Made by a program: the position numbers and the translations under genes
Shown here: positions 2,996 to 47,187 of the stretch, one piece after another
Position numbering within the stretch: the first letter of the stretch is position 1
Layout of the letters: each line of letters begins with the position of its first letter
Source: Candidatus Woesearchaeota archaeon
GTDB taxonomy: Archaea; Nanobdellota; Nanobdellia; Woesearchaeales; JAHWIC01
Reading direction: 5' to 3'
Assembly (NCBI GenBank): GCA_019322805.1
Contig: JAHWIC010000002.1
Span: forward strand, 2,938 to 66,937
Length of the DNA stretch: 64,000 bases
Notes under the pieces: model-generated
Seen by the model: only the letters and a program-made list of their open reading frames with translations
Told to the model about the DNA's origin: nothing
The model's database searches: none

Positions 2996-3786
2996 GCACG
3001 TGGAAGTTTGAGCAGGTTGGGACTAAACCAAAATTAAGGAATCCAATTCTTGTAGAGGGGTTGCCAGGCATTGGAAATGTTGGCAAGGTTGCTGTTGACT
3101 TTTTAATAGACGAGCTAAAGGCAAAGAAGATTTATGATATCAGTTCATATACATTTCCCCATTCTGTTTTTGTTAACGAAAAAAACCTTGTTGAGCTGCC
3201 TAAGATAGAGGTGTTTTACAAAAAGTTTGGAAATAAAAAGAATGACATATTATTCCTTGCAGGAGACATACAGCCTATTGATGAAGTAAGCTCATATGAG
3301 TTCTCTGACAAGATGCTTGACTTGCTTGAGAAATTCGGCGGGAAAGAGGTTATAACCCTCGGAGGAATTGGCTTATCTGATGTGCCTAAGCAGCCAAAGC
3401 TGTTTTGTACAGGGAATTCTAAACAGATAATTGAAAAATATAAGAATGGAGCTAATGAGAAGCTTTACGGTGTTGTTGGCCCTATTGTAGGCGTTACTGG
3501 ATTGTTGGTAGGCATGGCTTCAAAAAGGAAGATGAATGCAATTGCATTCCTGGCTGAAACTTATGGCCATCCGATGTATCTGGGCATAAAAGGAGCAAGA
3601 GAGATACTTAAGATACTTAATAAGAACCTTAATCTTAAAATTAATATCAAAAAGCTCGACGAGGAAATCAAGGAAGTTGAGACAGAGATTGTTAAAAGAA
3701 GCGGTGAGCTGGCAAAGGTTGCCAAGCAGACTGCATTGAAGAAACTGCAGAGTAAAATCGGGAAGGAAACGAGTTATATTGGATAA
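2992..3786 (+). CDS. PAC2-family proteasome assembly chaperone-like protein (archaeal PbaA/PbaB-like)
   Basis: LVEGLPGIGNVGKVAVDFLI motif typical of PAC2/DUF75. This family is conserved immediately downstream of Nop10 in archaea. Confidence 0.6.
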   Translation: MSTWKFEQVGTKPKLRNPILVEGLPGIGNVGKVAVDFLIDELKAKKIYDISSYTFPHSVFVNEKNLVELPKIEVFYKKFGNKKNDILFLAGDIQPIDEVSSYEFSDKMLDLLEKFGGKEVITLGGIGLSDVPKQPKLFCTGNSKQIIEKYKNGANEKLYGVVGPIVGVTGLLVGMASKRKMNAIAFLAETYGHPMYLGIKGAREILKILNKNLNLKINIKKLDEEIKEVETEIVKRSGELAKVAKQTALKKLQSKIGKETSYIG

Positions 3787-4035
3787 TCAATTTTAAAAGA
3801 TATCATTATCAAAAATATCAATAGAAAGAAAATAATTCTGAGTTTTGCTTTCTTCCTTTGTTTAAAGCAAAACTCGTCTTATTCTATTTCTTAAAGAACC
3901 AGAATAAGATGAAAATTCCCTTATCCTAGTTGTGAAAGGAATTTTCGGAATTAATTGTTATTAAATGATGATTTAATGTTGATAAAAAGAAACAAGCGCA
4001 CAACTAGTTGTGATTCCTGAAAGTGCGCCCAATGA
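3787..4035 (+). repeat. Structured intergenic repeat, copy 1. It begins at the PAC2 stop codon.
   Basis: Hairpin 1 spans 3840-3875: gagttttgcttt/aaagcaaaactc, 12 bp. Hairpin 2 spans 3911-3946: gaaaattcc.../...ggaattttc. The conserved tail is gttgtgaaaggaatt..attgttattaaat ... acaactagtt..ctgaaagt. It is ~85% identical to copy 2 (28400-28645) and related to copies 3 and 4. Confidence 0.8.
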
Positions 4036-4074
4036 TTATTAATATCGATGAAAACAACTGCAAAATAACAAAAT

Positions 4075-5400: not shown

Positions 5401-5972
5401 AACTGCATATCTATATCTTCAGGCACGGAGAAACCTACTGGAATAAAAATAAGATATTCTGCGGCTGGAGAGATTCAAAACTTACGCCTAACGGCGTTAA
5501 ACAGGCCAGAGCTCTTGCAAAGCGATTAAAGGGTAAAAAATTTCAAGCAGCTTATTACACCCGGCTCACAAGATCTAAACAGACCTTAAAAGAGGTTCTT
5601 AAATATCATCCAGAATGCAAAAAGCTAATCAAAGATGACAGAATCATTGAAAGACGCTATGGAAGACTGCAGGGCAAAAAGCATGCTACAATTATCAGGA
5701 AAGTAGGGAAAAAACAGTATGATATATGGCATAGAAGCTATGCTGTCCCTCCACCAGGCGGCGAGAGTGTAAAGATGGTTGAAAAAAGGGTCTATCCATT
5801 TGTTAAAGACCTGATCAAGATGATGAAGAAAGAAAAGGTAAATGTAGCTGTATCTGCCCATAACAACTCAATGAGGCCTTTCAGGAAATATTTTGAGAAG
5901 CTAACAGTCAAGCAGATGATGAAGCTTGAGAACCCCTGGGATAATTATTTTGAGTATACTATAGAAGTATAA
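5397..5972 (+). CDS. Histidine-phosphatase family phosphoglycerate mutase (2,3-BPG-dependent PGM-like)
   Basis: [32 protein letters not shown] matches the dPGM RHGE.EWN...GW.D..L...G N-terminal signature. The ATGA overlap with the enolase stop suggests co-translation. Confidence 0.75.
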
Positions 5973-27736: not shown

Positions 27737-28399
27737 ATGGAACTAAAAGGCATAAAAGGTAAGATACCAGCAGAATTATACAATATATTAGGGAAGGACA
27801 TCAAAGAACTCAGGTCATGCCAGGTAAAGGCTATTAAAACGGGGTTGTTGGAACGAGAGAACCTCCTGGTTTGCACTCCTACAGCTTCTGGAAAAACATT
27901 GATTGCTGAGTTGGCTGCTATAAGCTCTATACTGAAAGGCTCTGGAAAGGCTGTTTATATAGTTCCATTAAAGGCTCTTGCAAACGAGAAGTTCAGTGAC
28001 TTTAAGAAAAGGTACGGCAACCTTATTAGGGTTGCTTTATCCATAGGAGATATTGATTCTGCTGATCCTTACCTTGCTGATTATGACTTAATCATCACAA
28101 CCTCTGAAAAGCTTGACAGCCTTACAAGACATCATGCGCCATGGCTGAGCAGGATTGGAACTGTGATAGTAGATGAGATACACCTAATGAATGATCCTGG
28201 AAGAGGACCTACTCTTGAGATATTAATAACGATACTAAAGCAGCTATTAAAGCATGTACAAATTATTGGGTTATCAGCTACAATAGGAAATCCTGAGGAA
28301 TTAGCTGAATGGCTGGATGCCAGGCTGGTTATAGATAATTGGAGGCCAGTAAAGCTGCATAAGGGCATTTGTATGAGAGATGAAATTGAGTTCTATTAA
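27737..28399 (+). CDS. Truncated Ski2/Hel308-like DEAD/DEAH helicase (RecA1 domain only; probable gene fragment)
   Basis: Motif I TPTASGKT, Ia, II VIVDEIH and III SAT are present. The ORF stops after 220 aa with no RecA2 or C-terminal domains, and the stop is immediately followed by repeat copy 2. Confidence 0.6.
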   Translation: MELKGIKGKIPAELYNILGKDIKELRSCQVKAIKTGLLERENLLVCTPTASGKTLIAELAAISSILKGSGKAVYIVPLKALANEKFSDFKKRYGNLIRVALSIGDIDSADPYLADYDLIITTSEKLDSLTRHHAPWLSRIGTVIVDEIHLMNDPGRGPTLEILITILKQLLKHVQIIGLSATIGNPEELAEWLDARLVIDNWRPVKLHKGICMRDEIEFY

Positions 28400-28645
28400 T
28401 CAATTTAAAAAATTCAATAAAAAATAATCAATAGAAAAATAAATAATTCTGATTTTTGCTTTCTTCTCTTGTTTAAAGCAAAAATCATCTGCTCCTGTTT
28501 CTCAAAGAACCACTTAAGATGAAAATTCCCTTATTCTAGTTGTGAAAGGAATTTTCAGAATGATTAATTGTTATTAAATAAAAAATAGAGAATATCAACT
28601 GAAAAAATGTACAACTAATTCTAAAAGCTGAAAGTAAACCTAATG
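28400..28645 (+). repeat. Structured intergenic repeat, copy 2. It begins at the truncated helicase stop.
   Basis: Hairpin 1 at 28451-28486 (gatttttgcttt/aaagcaaaaatc) shows compensatory changes relative to copy 1. Hairpin 2 at 28521-28556. Shares the conserved attgttattaaat and acaactaatt...ctgaaagt tail. Confidence 0.8.
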
Positions 28646-28667
28646 ATAATAAACCAATGACAACCAA

Positions 28668-29831
28668 CTAAGCTTCTAAACCAAGATTTTGGAGCACAAT
28701 CTCAGAATCAAATTCTTTTAAGTCTTTGTATTCCTGACCAACACCAATATATATTATTGGCTTTTTTGTGACATAACTTACAGAAACAGCTGCTCCTCCT
28801 TTCTCATCAACATCTGCTTTTGAAAGGATTATTGCATCTATGCCGACTGCTTCATCAAATCTTTTGGCCTGCTCAACACAATCATTGCCAGTAATACTCT
28901 CTCCTACAAATATCTTTAAGTCAGGCTTGGCAACCCTAACTATCTTGCTCATTTCATCCATCAGGTTTGAGTTAGCATGCATCCTTCCCGCAGTATCAAT
29001 CAGAACAACATCTATGTTTTTTGATTCAGCATGCTTTATTGCGTCAAAGGCAACTGCTGCAGGGTCTGAGCCGTAATCATGCTTTATCAGTTTAACTCCA
29101 AGTTTATCAGCGTGAATCTGTAATTGGTCAATTGCAGCTGCCCTGAATGTGTCAGCAGCAGCAAGAACAACCTTCTTGTTATTGTTAAGAAGCATCTTGG
29201 CAATTTTGGCTATTGTTGTTGTTTTTCCAGAGCCATTAATACCAACAAAGCAGACAACAAATGGCTTCTTTTGCTTTATTTTGTCGAGTAAGTTAAAAGG
29301 TTTAGCTTCAAATAAATCCCCTATGCTTTTTTTCAAGGATTGTTCTATTGTTTTCTCTATCTTAGAACGCCTTATCGGTTTTTCAACAAGCTCTTGCTTA
29401 AGGTCTTCCTTGATTTTTCCTATGACCTCTGTTGCAACATTATTCTCAAGCAAAGCAACCTCAAGATTCCAGAATAATTCCTCAAACTGCTTTTCATTTA
29501 TTTTCTTTGTTACTACCTTTTCTTTTATTTTTCCGAAAAAGCCTTTTTTCTCCTCTGCTTCTTCCTCAATCTCTTTTTTAATTTCTCCTTTTTTTTCTAC
29601 TAATTTTTCAACCTTGGGTTTAGGCCTTTTTTCTTCAATCTTTTCTTCTTTCTCTTCTACTTTTTCAACTTTTACTTCTCCTTTTTTTGGCTTCTCCTCA
29701 AGTATGATTTCCTCCTTCTTAACTTCAGGTTTAGGCTCGACCCTAACTACCTCTTCCTTACCTTCTTCCTTAACCTTCTTAGAAATCTTGGAGATGGTGC
29801 TTCTTAATTTATCCTTTAAGAATTTAAACAT
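28668..29831 (-). CDS. ftsY: Signal recognition particle receptor FtsY
   Basis: K/E-rich N-domain followed by NG domain with FVGINGSGKTTT and DTAGR motifs. Confidence 0.9.
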   Translation of the reverse strand: MFKFLKDKLRSTISKISKKVKEEGKEEVVRVEPKPEVKKEEIILEEKPKKGEVKVEKVEEKEEKIEEKRPKPKVEKLVEKKGEIKKEIEEEAEEKKGFFGKIKEKVVTKKINEKQFEELFWNLEVALLENNVATEVIGKIKEDLKQELVEKPIRRSKIEKTIEQSLKKSIGDLFEAKPFNLLDKIKQKKPFVVCFVGINGSGKTTTIAKIAKMLLNNNKKVVLAAADTFRAAAIDQLQIHADKLGVKLIKHDYGSDPAAVAFDAIKHAESKNIDVVLIDTAGRMHANSNLMDEMSKIVRVAKPDLKIFVGESITGNDCVEQAKRFDEAVGIDAIILSKADVDEKGGAAVSVSYVTKKPIIYIGVGQEYKDLKEFDSEIVLQNLGLEA

Positions 29832-33649: not shown

Positions 33650-35288
<1,639 letters not shown>

Positions 35289-38725: not shown

Positions 38726-39145
38726 GTGGTGTTCTTTTACAGCATGGCTAGACTATTCAAGAATATGGAGATATACCAATTAAGCTATAACCTTGCAATA
38801 GATATTCATAGGTTATTGGACAAGTTCCCTGAGAAAGAAAAGGATAACTTAATATCTCAGATGAGAAGAGCAGTTACGTCTATTCCGTTGAATATTGCTG
38901 AGGGAAGCGTAAAAAAATCCTATAGAGAATTTCTTAATTTTTTAGGCTACTCTTATGGTTCTGCAAAAGAACTTGACGTTTTATTATCAATGTCAAAAGA
39001 TTTAAAATATATCACAGAGAAAGAATATGATGAGCTTTTTGGTAAGCTAGACAAACTTATGGCGAAACTTTTTGGTTTTATGAAGAATATTGAATCAAGG
39101 TTTGAAAATAAAAAGAAATTTTTTACAAAGTATAAAGGAAAATGA
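38726..39145 (+). CDS. Four-helix-bundle protein of the '23S rRNA intervening-sequence protein' family (PF05635-like)
   Basis: IYQLSYNLAIDIHRLLDKFPEKEKDNLISQMRRAVTSIPLNIAEGSVKKSYREFLNFLGYSYGSAKEL matches the family consensus (...FP.EE...L.SQ.RRAA.SI..NIAEG......EF..FL..A.GS..EL). It sits immediately 3' of the 23S gene. Confidence 0.65.
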   Translation: MVFFYSMARLFKNMEIYQLSYNLAIDIHRLLDKFPEKEKDNLISQMRRAVTSIPLNIAEGSVKKSYREFLNFLGYSYGSAKELDVLLSMSKDLKYITEKEYDELFGKLDKLMAKLFGFMKNIESRFENKKKFFTKYKGK

Positions 39146-40119: not shown

Positions 40120-40300
40120 AATCAATTTAAAGAACATCATTTGAAAAATAAATCTGATTTTTGCTTTCTTCTCTTGTTTAAAGCAAAAATCCTCTACACT
40201 TGGTTCTTGAAGAAAAAGAATAAGAAGAAAATTCCTTTAATGTAGTGAATAAGGGAATTTTCAGATTTAATTTTTGTTCTATTGATAAAGACTACAATCG
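40120..40300 (+). repeat. Structured intergenic repeat, copy 3. It begins at the Kae1 stop.
   Basis: TAAAATCAATTTAAAG...aaatctgatttttgctttcttctcttgtttaaagcaaaaatc (hairpin 1 identical to copy 2) ... gaaaattcctttaatgtagtgaataagggaattttc (hairpin 2 variant). The 3' tail diverges. Confidence 0.7.
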
Positions 40301-40347: not shown

Positions 40348-40434
40348 ATGCCATGCGGATGTTGTGGATCAAGAAAAAAGAAGGCTTCTAAGAAGAAGGC
40401 TTCTAAGAAGAAAGGTAAGAAGAAAAAGAGATAA
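40348..40434 (+). CDS. Tiny Cys/Lys-rich ORF (28 aa), speculative
   Basis: MPCGCCGSRKKKASKKKASKKKGKKKKR, preceded by a GGTGA RBS-like motif. Contains an 18-nt direct repeat. Very low support. Confidence 0.15.
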   Translation: MPCGCCGSRKKKASKKKASKKKGKKKKR

Positions 40435-46066: not shown

Positions 46067-46324
46067 ATGGAAGGAATAATATCCAATTTCAGACGCGGAA
46101 GACACAGGCAAGTAACAAACCAGATGATTATTAAGCCTGCCGGTGTTGACAAGAAAGAAGCAGCTGCAAAACTGGTCGGCAAAGCAGTCAGCTGGAAGAG
46201 CCCTGCTGGTAAAGAGATAAAAGGGAAAGTAGCTAAGGAGCACGGCAGGAATGGTTCTGTAAGGGTCCTTTTTGAGACAGGAATGCCTGGGCAGTCAATA
46301 GGTACTAAAGTTAGTATTCAATAA
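46067..46324 (+). CDS. rpl35ae: 50S ribosomal protein L35Ae
   Basis: RRGRHRQVTNQMIIKPAGVDKKEAAAKLVGKAVSWKSPAGKEIKGKVAKEHGRNGSVRVLFETGMPGQSIGTKV matches the L35Ae consensus. Confidence 0.8.
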   Translation: MEGIISNFRRGRHRQVTNQMIIKPAGVDKKEAAAKLVGKAVSWKSPAGKEIKGKVAKEHGRNGSVRVLFETGMPGQSIGTKVSIQ

Positions 46325-46384
46325 ATCATTAATTCTTATCACTAGGTGCACAAAAACATTTAGAATTAGTTGTGAACTTTGATT

Positions 46385-46657
46385 TTAACTATCATGTTAA
46401 ATTATCACTAATAACAATTAAATCCGAATTCCTTTCACAACCACAATAAAGGTTATAGTAAGCGAAATTATATAATCAATAGTTTCGCTTACTAAATAGT
46501 AAACGCAATCTTTCATAAAATAGTTGCGTTTACTAAATTTTCGTCTGCTTATGGTTCTTAAGAAACAGGAGCGGGATGATTTTTGCCTTAAGTAAGGAAT
46601 AAAGCAAAAATCGGATTTATTATTTTTCTAATGATATTTTTTATTGATAAGAAAAAA
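46385..46657 (-). repeat. Structured intergenic repeat, copy 4 (minus orientation). It starts immediately 3' of the minus-strand tRNA-iMet and carries two extra inserted hairpins.
   Basis: Read on the minus strand: ttatcaataaaaaatatcattagaaaaataataaatccgatttttgctttattccttacttaaggcaaaaatc... then two perfect 12-bp hairpins (tagtaaacgcaa/ttgcgtttacta and tagtaagcgaaa/tttcgcttacta) replace hairpin 2. Ends ...gttgtgaaaggaattcggatttaattgttatta as in copies 1-2. Confidence 0.7.
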
Positions 46658-46797
46658 TAGCGGGGAATGGACTCTCAAATCCTGAGGGATTTGTGGTCTC
46701 CCTCTGGGATATTTGAACCATCGACCTGAGGGTCTCTCTGCTTAAGCATATGAGCCCTCCGGGCACTCCTGACTGCCCTACCCCGCTGTAAGGTCTG
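46658..46797 (-). tRNA. Initiator tRNA-Met (anticodon CAT, A1:U72 pair) with two introns (anticodon loop ~15 nt; T-loop ~40 nt)
   Basis: Minus-strand read: AGCGGGG-TA-GGGC-AGTCAGGAGT-GCCC-G-GAGGG-CTCATA|tgcttaagcagagag|A-CCCTC-AGGTC-GATGG-TTCAAAT|atcccagagggagaccacaaatccctcaggatttgagagt|CCATT-CCCCGCT-A. The A1:U72 pair is an archaeal initiator hallmark. It overlaps the spurious ORF 46641..47162. Confidence 0.7.
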
Positions 46798-46881
46798 AGA
46801 AATAATCGGCTATTTATAAAAGTTTGGAATAAAAAAGAAAACGAAAGATAAATAAATACATTCAATAAATCAGAGATAGAG

Positions 46882-47187
46882 GTGTTTACTATGACAAATG
46901 GAATAAAATTATTAATACTTGATATATTAAAGCCGATAGAGCCCCCTATATTAGAATATGCCCAGGCTATAGCTGCTATAGATAAATCGTATTCTGTGAG
47001 TCTCAGGGTTGAAGAGATCGATGAGAAGACCGAAACAGTTGAGGTGATTGTTATCGGTGATAACATCAACTTCAAAAAAATAGAAGAGAAGATTAACAAG
47101 CTTGGCGGAACAGTGCATAGCTTAGACGAGGTCTCTGAGGGAAAACAGATGATTAACTCCAAGGATTTTTCTGGGATGCGTAAATGA
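46882..47187 (+). CDS. DUF211-family protein (COG1888)
   Basis: IKLLILDILKPIEPPILEYAQAIAAIDKSYSVSLRVEEIDEKTETVEVIVIGDNINFKKIEEKINKLGGTVHSLDEV matches the DUF211 consensus (LVLDVLKPH.P...E.A..L.....V..V........D..TE....TIEG..ID...I...IE..GG.IHSIDEV). Confidence 0.6.
   Translation: MFTMTNGIKLLILDILKPIEPPILEYAQAIAAIDKSYSVSLRVEEIDEKTETVEVIVIGDNINFKKIEEKINKLGGTVHSLDEVSEGKQMINSKDFSGMRK

Follow-up and report, generated by a model that had tools for sequence, protein, structure and literature searches.

The DNA analysed here (hereafter the window) is a 64,000-nt stretch of contig JAHWIC010000002.1 from the Candidatus Woesearchaeota assembly GCA_019322805.1, and it carries four copies of a structured repeat in the spacers between its genes. 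The window is AT-rich archaeal DNA (~37% G+C) with a ribosomal RNA (rRNA) operon; its proteins are 100% identical to Candidatus Woesearchaeota entries and are also present in JGI metagenome 3300027901 (Ga0209427). Genes are densely packed, with spacers mostly of 0-100 nt, and most of the long intergenic spacers are copies of this family. [quoted passage not shown]

Four homologous copies had been recognised in a sequence-only reading of the window, and they were recovered at or near the same positions both by an nhmmer profile of the four (E-values of 1e-44 to 1e-65) and by a covariance model, R1, built from 62 copies (62-128 bits, with the next best match at 18 bits). Neither search found a further copy in the 64-kb window, and the density is 4 per 64 kb, i.e., ~62 per Mb. 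The refined extents are 3787-4050 (+), 28400-28660 (+), 40120-40290 (+) and 46325-46648 (-). The last of these replaces an earlier estimate of 46385-46657, since the first ATCAAT of copy 4 lies 9 nt past the 3' end of a tRNA gene, beyond a T6C tract, and its far end lies 0 nt from the L35Ae stop codon. The copies measure ~170-324 bp, within the size of under ~500 bp used for MITEs. No real open reading frame (ORF) of at least 70 aa lies inside any window copy, ORF 46641-47162 being spurious and crossing the tRNA gene, so the element has no coding potential. Its parts and immediate neighbours are as follows.

3787-3839, + strand: 5' arm of copy 1, A-rich with TCAAT, ATCATT and ATCAAT motifs, directly after the PAC2 stop codon TAA (3784-3786)
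3840-3875, + strand: hairpin P2 of copy 1, GAGTTTTGCTTT / AAAGCAAAACTC with a 12-nt loop, the G-C variant at the covarying pair
3876-3910, + strand: hairpin P3 of copy 1, the variable module, here TCTTATTCT/AGAATAAGA
3911-3946, + strand: hairpin P4 of copy 1, GAAAATTCC / GGAATTTTC
3947-3985, + strand: 3' arm of copy 1, an imperfect inverse of the 5' arm, with ATGATGAT and GTTGATAA
3996-4050, + strand: module B beside copy 1, GCGCACAACTAGTTGTG..GAAAGTGCGCCCAATGAT, a separate inverted-repeat unit
28400-28660, + strand: copy 2, with 5' arm 28400-28450, P2 28451-28486, a degenerate P3, P4 28521-28556, a 3' arm and module B 28607-28660
28397-28399, + strand, and 28668-28670, - strand: stop codons of the helicase and FtsY genes that flank copy 2
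40120-40290, + strand: copy 3, a short form, with 5' arm 40120-40155, P2 40156-40191, a degenerate P3 and P4 40227-40262, beginning 2 nt after the Kae1 stop codon
40263-40290, + strand: 3' arm of copy 3, ending ATTGATAAAG
46325-46648, - strand: copy 4, with 5' arm 46613-46648, P2 46578-46612, P3, a split P4 (its remainder at 46426-46452) and module B 46325-46377
46658-46787, - strand, and 46322-46324, + strand: the tRNA-Met gene and the L35Ae stop codon, whose spacer is filled by copy 4

The general layout is an A-rich left arm, the three hairpins P2, P3 and P4, and a T-rich right arm. The arms are imperfect inverted repeats of ~28-36 nt, each with one to four (T)AATCA(A/T)T motifs; the left arm ends in AAATCYG next to the core, and the right arm starts with CRGATTT and continues T-rich with A(A/T)TGAT motifs, as in copy 3 (AATCAAT..AAATCTG / CAGATTT..ATTGAT). 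When the 5' flank of the core was compared with the reverse complement of the 3' flank, it scored better than its own shuffles in 57 of 63 copies, with a mean of 10.8 against 7.5 for shuffles and 6.1 for a direct-orientation control. The P2 stem is GATTTTTGC/GCAAAAATC (consensus GAKTTTTGC...GCAAAAMTC) and the P4 stem GAAAATTCC/GGAATTTTC, and both are present in all four window copies. P3 is closed by CATC...GATG around several unrelated interiors, which, together with nested inserts, bears out the earlier view of the element as modular.

In copy 4, the second conserved hairpin had been thought to be replaced by two others. P4 is in fact present, split by an 83-nt block of two related hairpins (46453-46535) inserted in its 5' arm, and the same 83-nt composite occurs at three other loci among those fetched (L220, at about 3000-3090, L152 and L207). 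A second nested insert of ~55 nt, again with two hairpins, was found in four further loci (L176, L183, L200 and L211). Both types are found within P4 or immediately behind it and at several loci each, and composite versions of the element have spread to new loci; these nested inserts may be a still smaller mobile unit. Module B, on the 3' side of copies 1, 2 and 4, has ends GTGCRCAACTAATTGTG..CTGAAAGTGCACCTAGTGAT (inverted end ATCACTAGGTGCAC) and is also seen in L143, L160, L194 and L223. Because it occurs elsewhere alone, inverted or around the core, we regard it as a separate and independent small repeat.

The sequence-only reading had proposed a search of other genomes, and about 100 further dispersed copies were found, some of them in the metagenome-assembled genome (MAG) YT1_182, others in a complete genome of 1.14 Mb or in metagenomes from estuaries or sediments. 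A scan of one genome per species with the P2 pattern gave mostly chance matches, the true members being six loci of the Woesearchaeota MAG YT1_182 (at least six copies there). A scan of JGI metagenomes with the P4 pattern gave 80 contigs, nearly all true members with ~90 copies, chiefly from JGI2171J19970, Ga0209427, Ga0209636 and SMTZ1. Neither pattern gave family members in IMG/VR, and a viral origin was rejected on this ground. Some loci were fetched via neighbouring proteins and are hence unselected for the element; among these, the complete genome CP070655.1 has one copy in the 20.6 kb fetched (L223) and contig 11 of YT1_182 has none in 24 kb. Overall, the element recurs at a fairly even density of ~1 copy per 15-20 kb in several related lineages, and the genes that flank the copies are unrelated housekeeping genes. 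Recent copies, which would have defined the ends of the element, were sought, and only overlaps between contig ends were found; several metagenome contigs end inside copies. Two observations concern individual records: the CP070655.1 entry is labelled Omnitrophota, its genes match Woesearchaeota at 85% identity and the fetched stretch holds a run of N (5543-5642), and in L221 an Orc1/Cdc6-like gene (716-2193; AAA_22, Cdc6_lid) lies between two copies in inverted orientation.

Evidence that the element is inserted DNA comes from orthologous sites in relatives whose flanking proteins are 84-93% identical to those of the window. In close relatives, three of the four sites of the window (those of copies 1, 2 and 3) turn up empty, with a truncated copy or with no more than a remnant. 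At the helicase/FtsY site of L223 (CP070655.1, 10660-10663) the convergent stop codons overlap as TTAA with no spacer at all; L228 has a 28-nt spacer, TAATCAT-gta-ATAATGATT, made up of two arm tips only; and L224 has a short-form copy of a different subtype, with another P2 loop and P3 and without module B. Between PAC2 and enolase, the spacer is empty in L230 (12 nt) and L232 (23 nt), holds a solo ATCAAT cluster in L229 and a 5' half-copy in L231, and is filled by copy 1 in the window, where the first ~16 nt of the 5' arm are homologous to the short spacer of L232. At the Kae1 site, L234 is empty with an 8-nt spacer, and YT1_182 (L233) shares copy 3 with the window. Presence and absence are reciprocal between L175 and L194, which are ~80% identical and each have a copy that the other lacks. 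The comparison of orthologous loci that had been proposed as a check therefore shows both states, and the suggestion of a non-autonomous mobile element is supported by these sites, by the L175/L194 reciprocity and by the ~100 dispersed copies. Beside copy 3 lies a small Cys/Lys-rich ORF (40348-40434, +; MPCGCCGSRKKKASKKKASKKKGKKKKR) with a TATA-like box and a GAGGTGAT ribosome-binding site; it is kept in YT1_182 and is absent together with copy 3 in L234.

The placement of copies relative to genes had been described as always abutting the 3' end of a co-oriented gene, and this holds within the window. For copies 2, 3 and 4 it is automatic, because they lie between convergent genes or RNA genes (the true neighbour of copy 3 is a 53-aa zinc-ribbon gene on the minus strand), where a copy comes after some co-oriented 3' end whichever way it points, and copy 1 is the only informative one. 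Elsewhere the rule breaks down: 58 classified copies have tandem neighbours in 21 co-oriented and 11 anti-oriented cases, convergent neighbours in 15 and divergent ones in 11, the copy of CP070655.1 being one that is anti-oriented between two plus-strand genes. The tandem split of 21:11 is not significant (p about 0.1), and the 11 divergent and 11 anti-oriented tandem copies of the 58 speak against an element that targets gene 3' ends as such. The element is inserted in all intergenic contexts and in both orientations.

The distance to the neighbouring stop codon or gene 3' end was likewise reported as 0-2 nt throughout. This is correct for copies 1 and 2, where TCAAT follows TAA directly, and for copy 3, which starts 2 nt after TAA; copy 4, at 9 nt, departs from it. 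Across the family, a stop codon is followed within 0-2 nt by an arm tip at 14 of 40 junctions on the 5' side of the core and at 2 of 26 on the 3' side, and 14 of the 16 abutting stops are TAA. ATCAAT/AATCAAT was also considered as a general post-stop signal and rejected, as in the window it marks only element-associated stops (8 of 56 against a background of 8%).

The element leaves the stop codons and C-termini of its neighbours intact, which disposes of the idea that it supplies a stop codon. PAC2 ends in ...KETSYIG* in the window and in L229, L230, L231 and L232, whatever follows, and the helicase ends in ...EIEFY* in the window, L224 and L223 and one residue later, in ...EIEFYQ*, in L228. 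Nor is the helicase truncated, as it had been described: its 220-aa form is shared by over 100 homologues, nearly all 219-222 aa long and with 74-90% identity, which makes it a conserved stand-alone gene of normal length and rules out truncation by the element. The gene itself (27737-28399, +) encodes only the first (DEAD) helicase domain, has its more than 100 homologues in Woesearchaeota and looks like a split helicase. The gene next to copy 4 had been correctly called as an initiator tRNA-Met, although it has two introns: the initiator-like tRNA-Met(CAT) carries one of 15 nt after position 37 and one of 40 nt in the T-loop, and the unspliced gene is missed by ARAGORN and Rfam, while ARAGORN calls it after in-silico splicing.

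What sets these repeats apart is how little their arms and stems change once inserted. Between copy 3 and its orthologue in YT1_182 (L233), the 48 stem positions show a single difference, the 64 positions of the arms 3 and the 60 positions in the loops and P3 16, and four-fold degenerate sites of Kae1 differ between the same genomes at 48 of 120 (40%). Arms and stems are thus ~4% diverged, and the probability of four or fewer changes at the neutral rate is about 6e-22, an estimate that rests on one clean orthologous pair and with which other orthologous pairs agree qualitatively. The copies of L223, L224 and L231, which were found without either search pattern, also have perfect P2 and P4 stems. 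It appears that arms and stems are preserved, through selection or repeated correction, and that the loops drift.

A second regularity concerns homopolymer tracts. Of 65 copies, 59 have at least five consecutive A in the 30 nt upstream of P2 and 31 at least five consecutive T in the 30 nt downstream of P4, against a background of ~10% for either. A hairpin cluster followed by oligo-T is therefore read on either strand, in 31 of 65 copies on the sense strand and 59 of 65 on the antisense strand. Oligo-T is the intrinsic termination signal of archaea.

An alternative is that the repeats are a structured RNA family, either small RNA genes or cis-acting 3'-untranslated or intercistronic modules whose stems are sites for RNA-binding proteins. 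Structure was assessed on 62 distinct cores (alignment A3). The compensatory double change in P2 that had been noted earlier (gagttttgc/gcaaaactc versus gatttttgc/gcaaaaatc) is real: the pair is UA in 52 copies, GC in 9 and broken in a single intermediate, and the change occurs on several loop backgrounds. The base of P3 is UA (25), CG (15) or AU (3), with 13 cells unpaired, and P3, in spite of its several unrelated sequence versions, forms a hairpin in most copies, with a mean z of -2.7 over the 62; 29 of these fall short of z = -2 and so fold scarcely better than shuffled sequence. Copy 1 folds far better than its shuffles (z = -5.2), and an RNA family would also account for the conservation of stems and arms after insertion in every context, divergent genes included. 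Copy 2 is marginal on the same measure (z = -1.9).

Across the 62 copies, the sequence of the P2 and P4 stems is nearly constant, more so than pairing alone would ask, so there is little covariation to measure. RNAalifold predicted only P2 and P4 in its consensus. When P1 to P4 were imposed, 92% of cells were paired and the covariation score was 0.088 against 0.056 in shuffles (0 of 500 as high); 141 of the 500 shuffles had at least as many pairs with double changes (nine), and 17 of the 36 pairs show no variation at all. The closing stem P1, with which copy 1 would form a four-way junction, is weak, as 40 of 372 P1 cells are non-standard pairs, and an alternative partner is possible for the P1 base pair next to P4. 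Mismatched stem cells are G·U in 45 cases and A·C in 42, which is not the signature of a strand-specific RNA and favours neither strand; with model R1 the reverse strand scored 85 bits and the forward strand 120-128 bits. The earlier claim of selection on RNA structure rather than on coding holds in so far as coding potential is absent; the RNA level itself does not follow from invariant stems and balanced mismatches. Pairing is clearly maintained, and the levels of RNA, DNA and protein-recognised sequence all fit.

Searches for a known RNA or for the parts of an RNA gene gave similar results. At gathering thresholds, Rfam matched only the rRNAs and one tRNA in the window; at permissive thresholds the sole whole-model match was TD-1 (RF03155), at 28.1 bits against a gathering threshold of 64.5. 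In its gene version, the RNA alternative would use TTTAAAAA in the left arm as a TATA box and the oligo-T after P4 as a terminator; the TATA-like TTTAAAAA lies anywhere between 20 and 41 nt from P2, and the idea of an own promoter was dropped on that ground, and the terminator tract is lacking in the remainder of the 65 copies counted above. A C/D-box or H/ACA small RNA was set aside because CUGA and GAUGA occur in the wrong order and no ACA box is present (by eye), with no support from Rfam, and a guide RNA with a fixed scaffold and loops as guides was ruled out by the near-neutral drift of loops between orthologues. A fold for translational coupling was rejected as well, since no more than 5 of 23 folds pair the Shine-Dalgarno region to the first 40 nt; those five are tandem loci including copy 1, in which the post-stop TCAAT pairs with the downstream Shine-Dalgarno region in the minimum-energy fold, and they count in favour of an RNA role, as do the tandem co-orientation (not significant) and the 5' bias of stop abutment. 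Taken together, we consider a structured RNA family unlikely.

The same conservation could be expected of an array of DNA sites for a chromosome-organising or regulatory protein of the host, dispersed by an old mobile ancestor and kept for binding. Both P2 and P4 half-sites and the arms are invariant in all contexts and both orientations, there is no strand asymmetry and the density is fairly even. Against this, the half-sites are separated by variable loops of 10-13 nt, copies have been lost in close relatives without visible consequence and no candidate protein is known; we give this explanation very little credence indeed.

For a MITE-like family, then, several observations are awkward. No clean target-site duplication is readable in the AT-rich DNA. 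Copies 1-3 have TAA on either side, but the arm motif itself includes TGATAA/TAATCA; the copy 1 insertion, compared with L232, has AAAAGA at each edge, in DNA that is AT-rich and among copies that are old. No transposase gene bounded by the same arms was found in the ~530 kb of fetched loci, where the genes between or beside paired copies are housekeeping genes; a regex search for an autonomous element, as a left arm without a following P2, gave nothing useful, its pattern being too restrictive. Identity between copies at different loci is mostly <90%, which makes the family an old one and gives no hint of a recent burst. Empty sites (L232, L175, L228 and L229) often keep a solo ATCA(A/T)T motif, so some of them may be deletions and not the ancestral state. 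The 5' bias in stop abutment is not predicted by symmetric cut-and-paste insertion. Finally, divergence of ~4% in arms and stems against 40% at neutral sites is unexplained by selfish spread independent of the host. All of these weigh against the MITE-like interpretation.

Some of them would suit a single-strand-DNA element, either derived from IS200/IS605 (a PATE) or of the repetitive extragenic palindrome (REP) type, in which P2 and P4 would be bound by a Y1 (HUH) transposase and insertion would be directional, 3' of T(A/G)A or beside TCAAT, without target duplication. Stems that are invariant while loops are free, the lack of a visible duplication, the directional abutment, the ATCA(A/T)T-like motif beside the insertion point of empty sites and the G·U/A·C symmetry expected of DNA hairpins all agree with it, and an IS200-type Y1 transposase does occur in the same populations. 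That transposase (157 aa; PF01797, E 2e-29) is encoded by an IS200-type element in L196 (75-740), which is inserted in a copy between P3 and P4 and is missing from L168, otherwise 99.9% identical. Its end hairpins, however, are GC-rich and unrelated to P2 and P4, and it has itself inserted into the element. The left-end and right-end hairpins of IS200/IS605 elements are near-identical, whereas P2 and P4, read from the sequence, have arms that agree at only 8 of 12 positions; IS200/IS605 elements also lack the inverted arms seen here, and no RAYT or TnpA gene was found beside any copy in the fetched loci. Membership in IS200/IS605 or REP therefore fails on hairpin similarity (4 of 12 positions differ), on the arms and on the want of an associated Y1 transposase, and we regard a single-strand-DNA origin as very improbable.

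We therefore return to the MITE-like family, for which the following course of events may be envisaged. A protein supplied in trans, putatively a transposase or recombinase, would recognise the arms and stems and move or copy the element, and insertion would favour A/T-rich, TAA-like sites. Because spacers are only 0-30 nt long and the target preference is for TAA-like sequence, the insertions that survive would often lie right at stop codons. Resident copies would then be kept as spacer modules. Their hairpins, between oligo-A and oligo-T, could provide an oligo-T termination signal in both directions, and the TGAT motifs of the right arm could serve the downstream gene as a Shine-Dalgarno-like site. 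The Shine-Dalgarno sequence is the part of an mRNA that pairs with 16S rRNA, and where the flanking genes are in tandem, the right arm's final TGAT or GGTGAT is usually 4-8 nt before the downstream ATG, i.e., at the expected Shine-Dalgarno position. The element has possibly been co-opted as a terminator or spacer.

A more far-reaching version would see the repeat as an operon-compatible mobile element that is maintained as the gene punctuation of Woesearchaeota. Its arm tips would mimic the anti-Shine-Dalgarno (ATCA, at the 3' end of 16S rRNA) and the Shine-Dalgarno sequence (TGAT, as in GGAGGTGAT), it would land exactly at TAA stop codons, and the stem formed by its arms would join the upstream stop to the downstream start, allowing translational coupling across a 200-nt insert; between convergent genes it would act in bidirectional termination instead. 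This version would explain purifying selection on arms and stems after insertion. That mimicry, landing and bridging hold jointly is decidedly unlikely in our judgement.

Two observations on the rRNA operon of the window stand apart from the repeats. The small-subunit (SSU) rRNA match at 33650-35286 spans 1637 nt against 1478 for the Rfam model, and the excess of ~160 nt suggests an intron or insertion. Just after the large-subunit (LSU) rRNA lies an ORF (38726-39145) whose counterpart protein in identical contigs has the domain PF05635 (23S_rRNA_IVP).

Elements of this kind are already known, and what is odd here is mainly that arms and stems stay nearly unchanged after insertion. REP elements have conserved hairpin stems and are intergenic, often just after stop codons, with possible roles in termination and in protecting mRNA 3' ends; compared with REPs, their composite forms (BIMEs) and other palindromes derived from IS200/IS605, the present element is far longer, combines three different hairpins with inverted arms and has no associated Y1 transposase in the fetched loci. 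The nearest systems are Correia/NEMIS, ERIC, pneumococcal BOX, RUP, SPRITE, the Coxiella QMITE and the archaeal MITEs of Sulfolobus and Haloquadratum. Like those, it is small, AT-rich, non-coding and multicopy, with imperfect inverted arms around a core, and it is confined to intergenic DNA, folds stably, is modular and nested, resembles terminators and varies in presence between orthologous sites. Prokaryotic MITEs in general are AT-rich and intergenic with terminal inverted repeats, lose their direct repeats with age, have stably folded transcripts, insert into one another and include terminator-like members (PMC10969869). The present family differs in its host, a DPANN archaeon with a genome of ~1 Mb, in arms made of repeated 6-8-nt motifs instead of one simple terminal repeat, in a three-hairpin core whose stems are invariant in sequence across species, in the strong conservation after insertion (one orthologous pair) and in that no target duplication or parent insertion sequence was identified in the fetched loci. 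According to the text of a census of prokaryotic MITEs (Nucleic Acids Res 2024), a Woesearchaea genome has 105 MITEs per Mb, among the highest densities in archaea (PMC11602168); that text gives counts only, with no family sequence, anatomy or context, and the MITEs counted may or may not include the present family.

A further resemblance is to TD-1 (RF03155; Weinberg et al. 2007), an RNA motif of Treponema denticola. TD-1 is multicopy and has three hairpins in a row; a sister motif, in reverse complement, overlaps some of its instances, and because its stems are modular and carry mutations that break pairs, it was left doubtful whether TD-1 is an RNA (PMC1950547). Our element is likewise a multicopy three-hairpin motif, and copy 1 aligns to the whole model; the host of TD-1 is bacterial (a spirochaete), the similarity is mostly in A/U-rich stems and the score lies far below the threshold given above, which makes this a resemblance of kind and not homology.

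The most interesting points are the conservation after insertion, the 5'-biased placement at TAA stops and the putative protein that recognises the element, and for the last of these the family itself would be a handle. It also has practical consequences, as it breaks metagenome assemblies, in which contigs end inside copies, and can mislead annotation, for instance through apparently 'truncated' genes or through false ORFs extending into the arms. Among cellular genomes, those of DPANN archaea include some of the smallest and most densely packed, and the mobile DNA and gene punctuation of these archaea have been little studied. If the conservation holds generally, the family would be an instance in which a streamlined genome has taken over a selfish repeat and maintains it as a terminator or spacer module.

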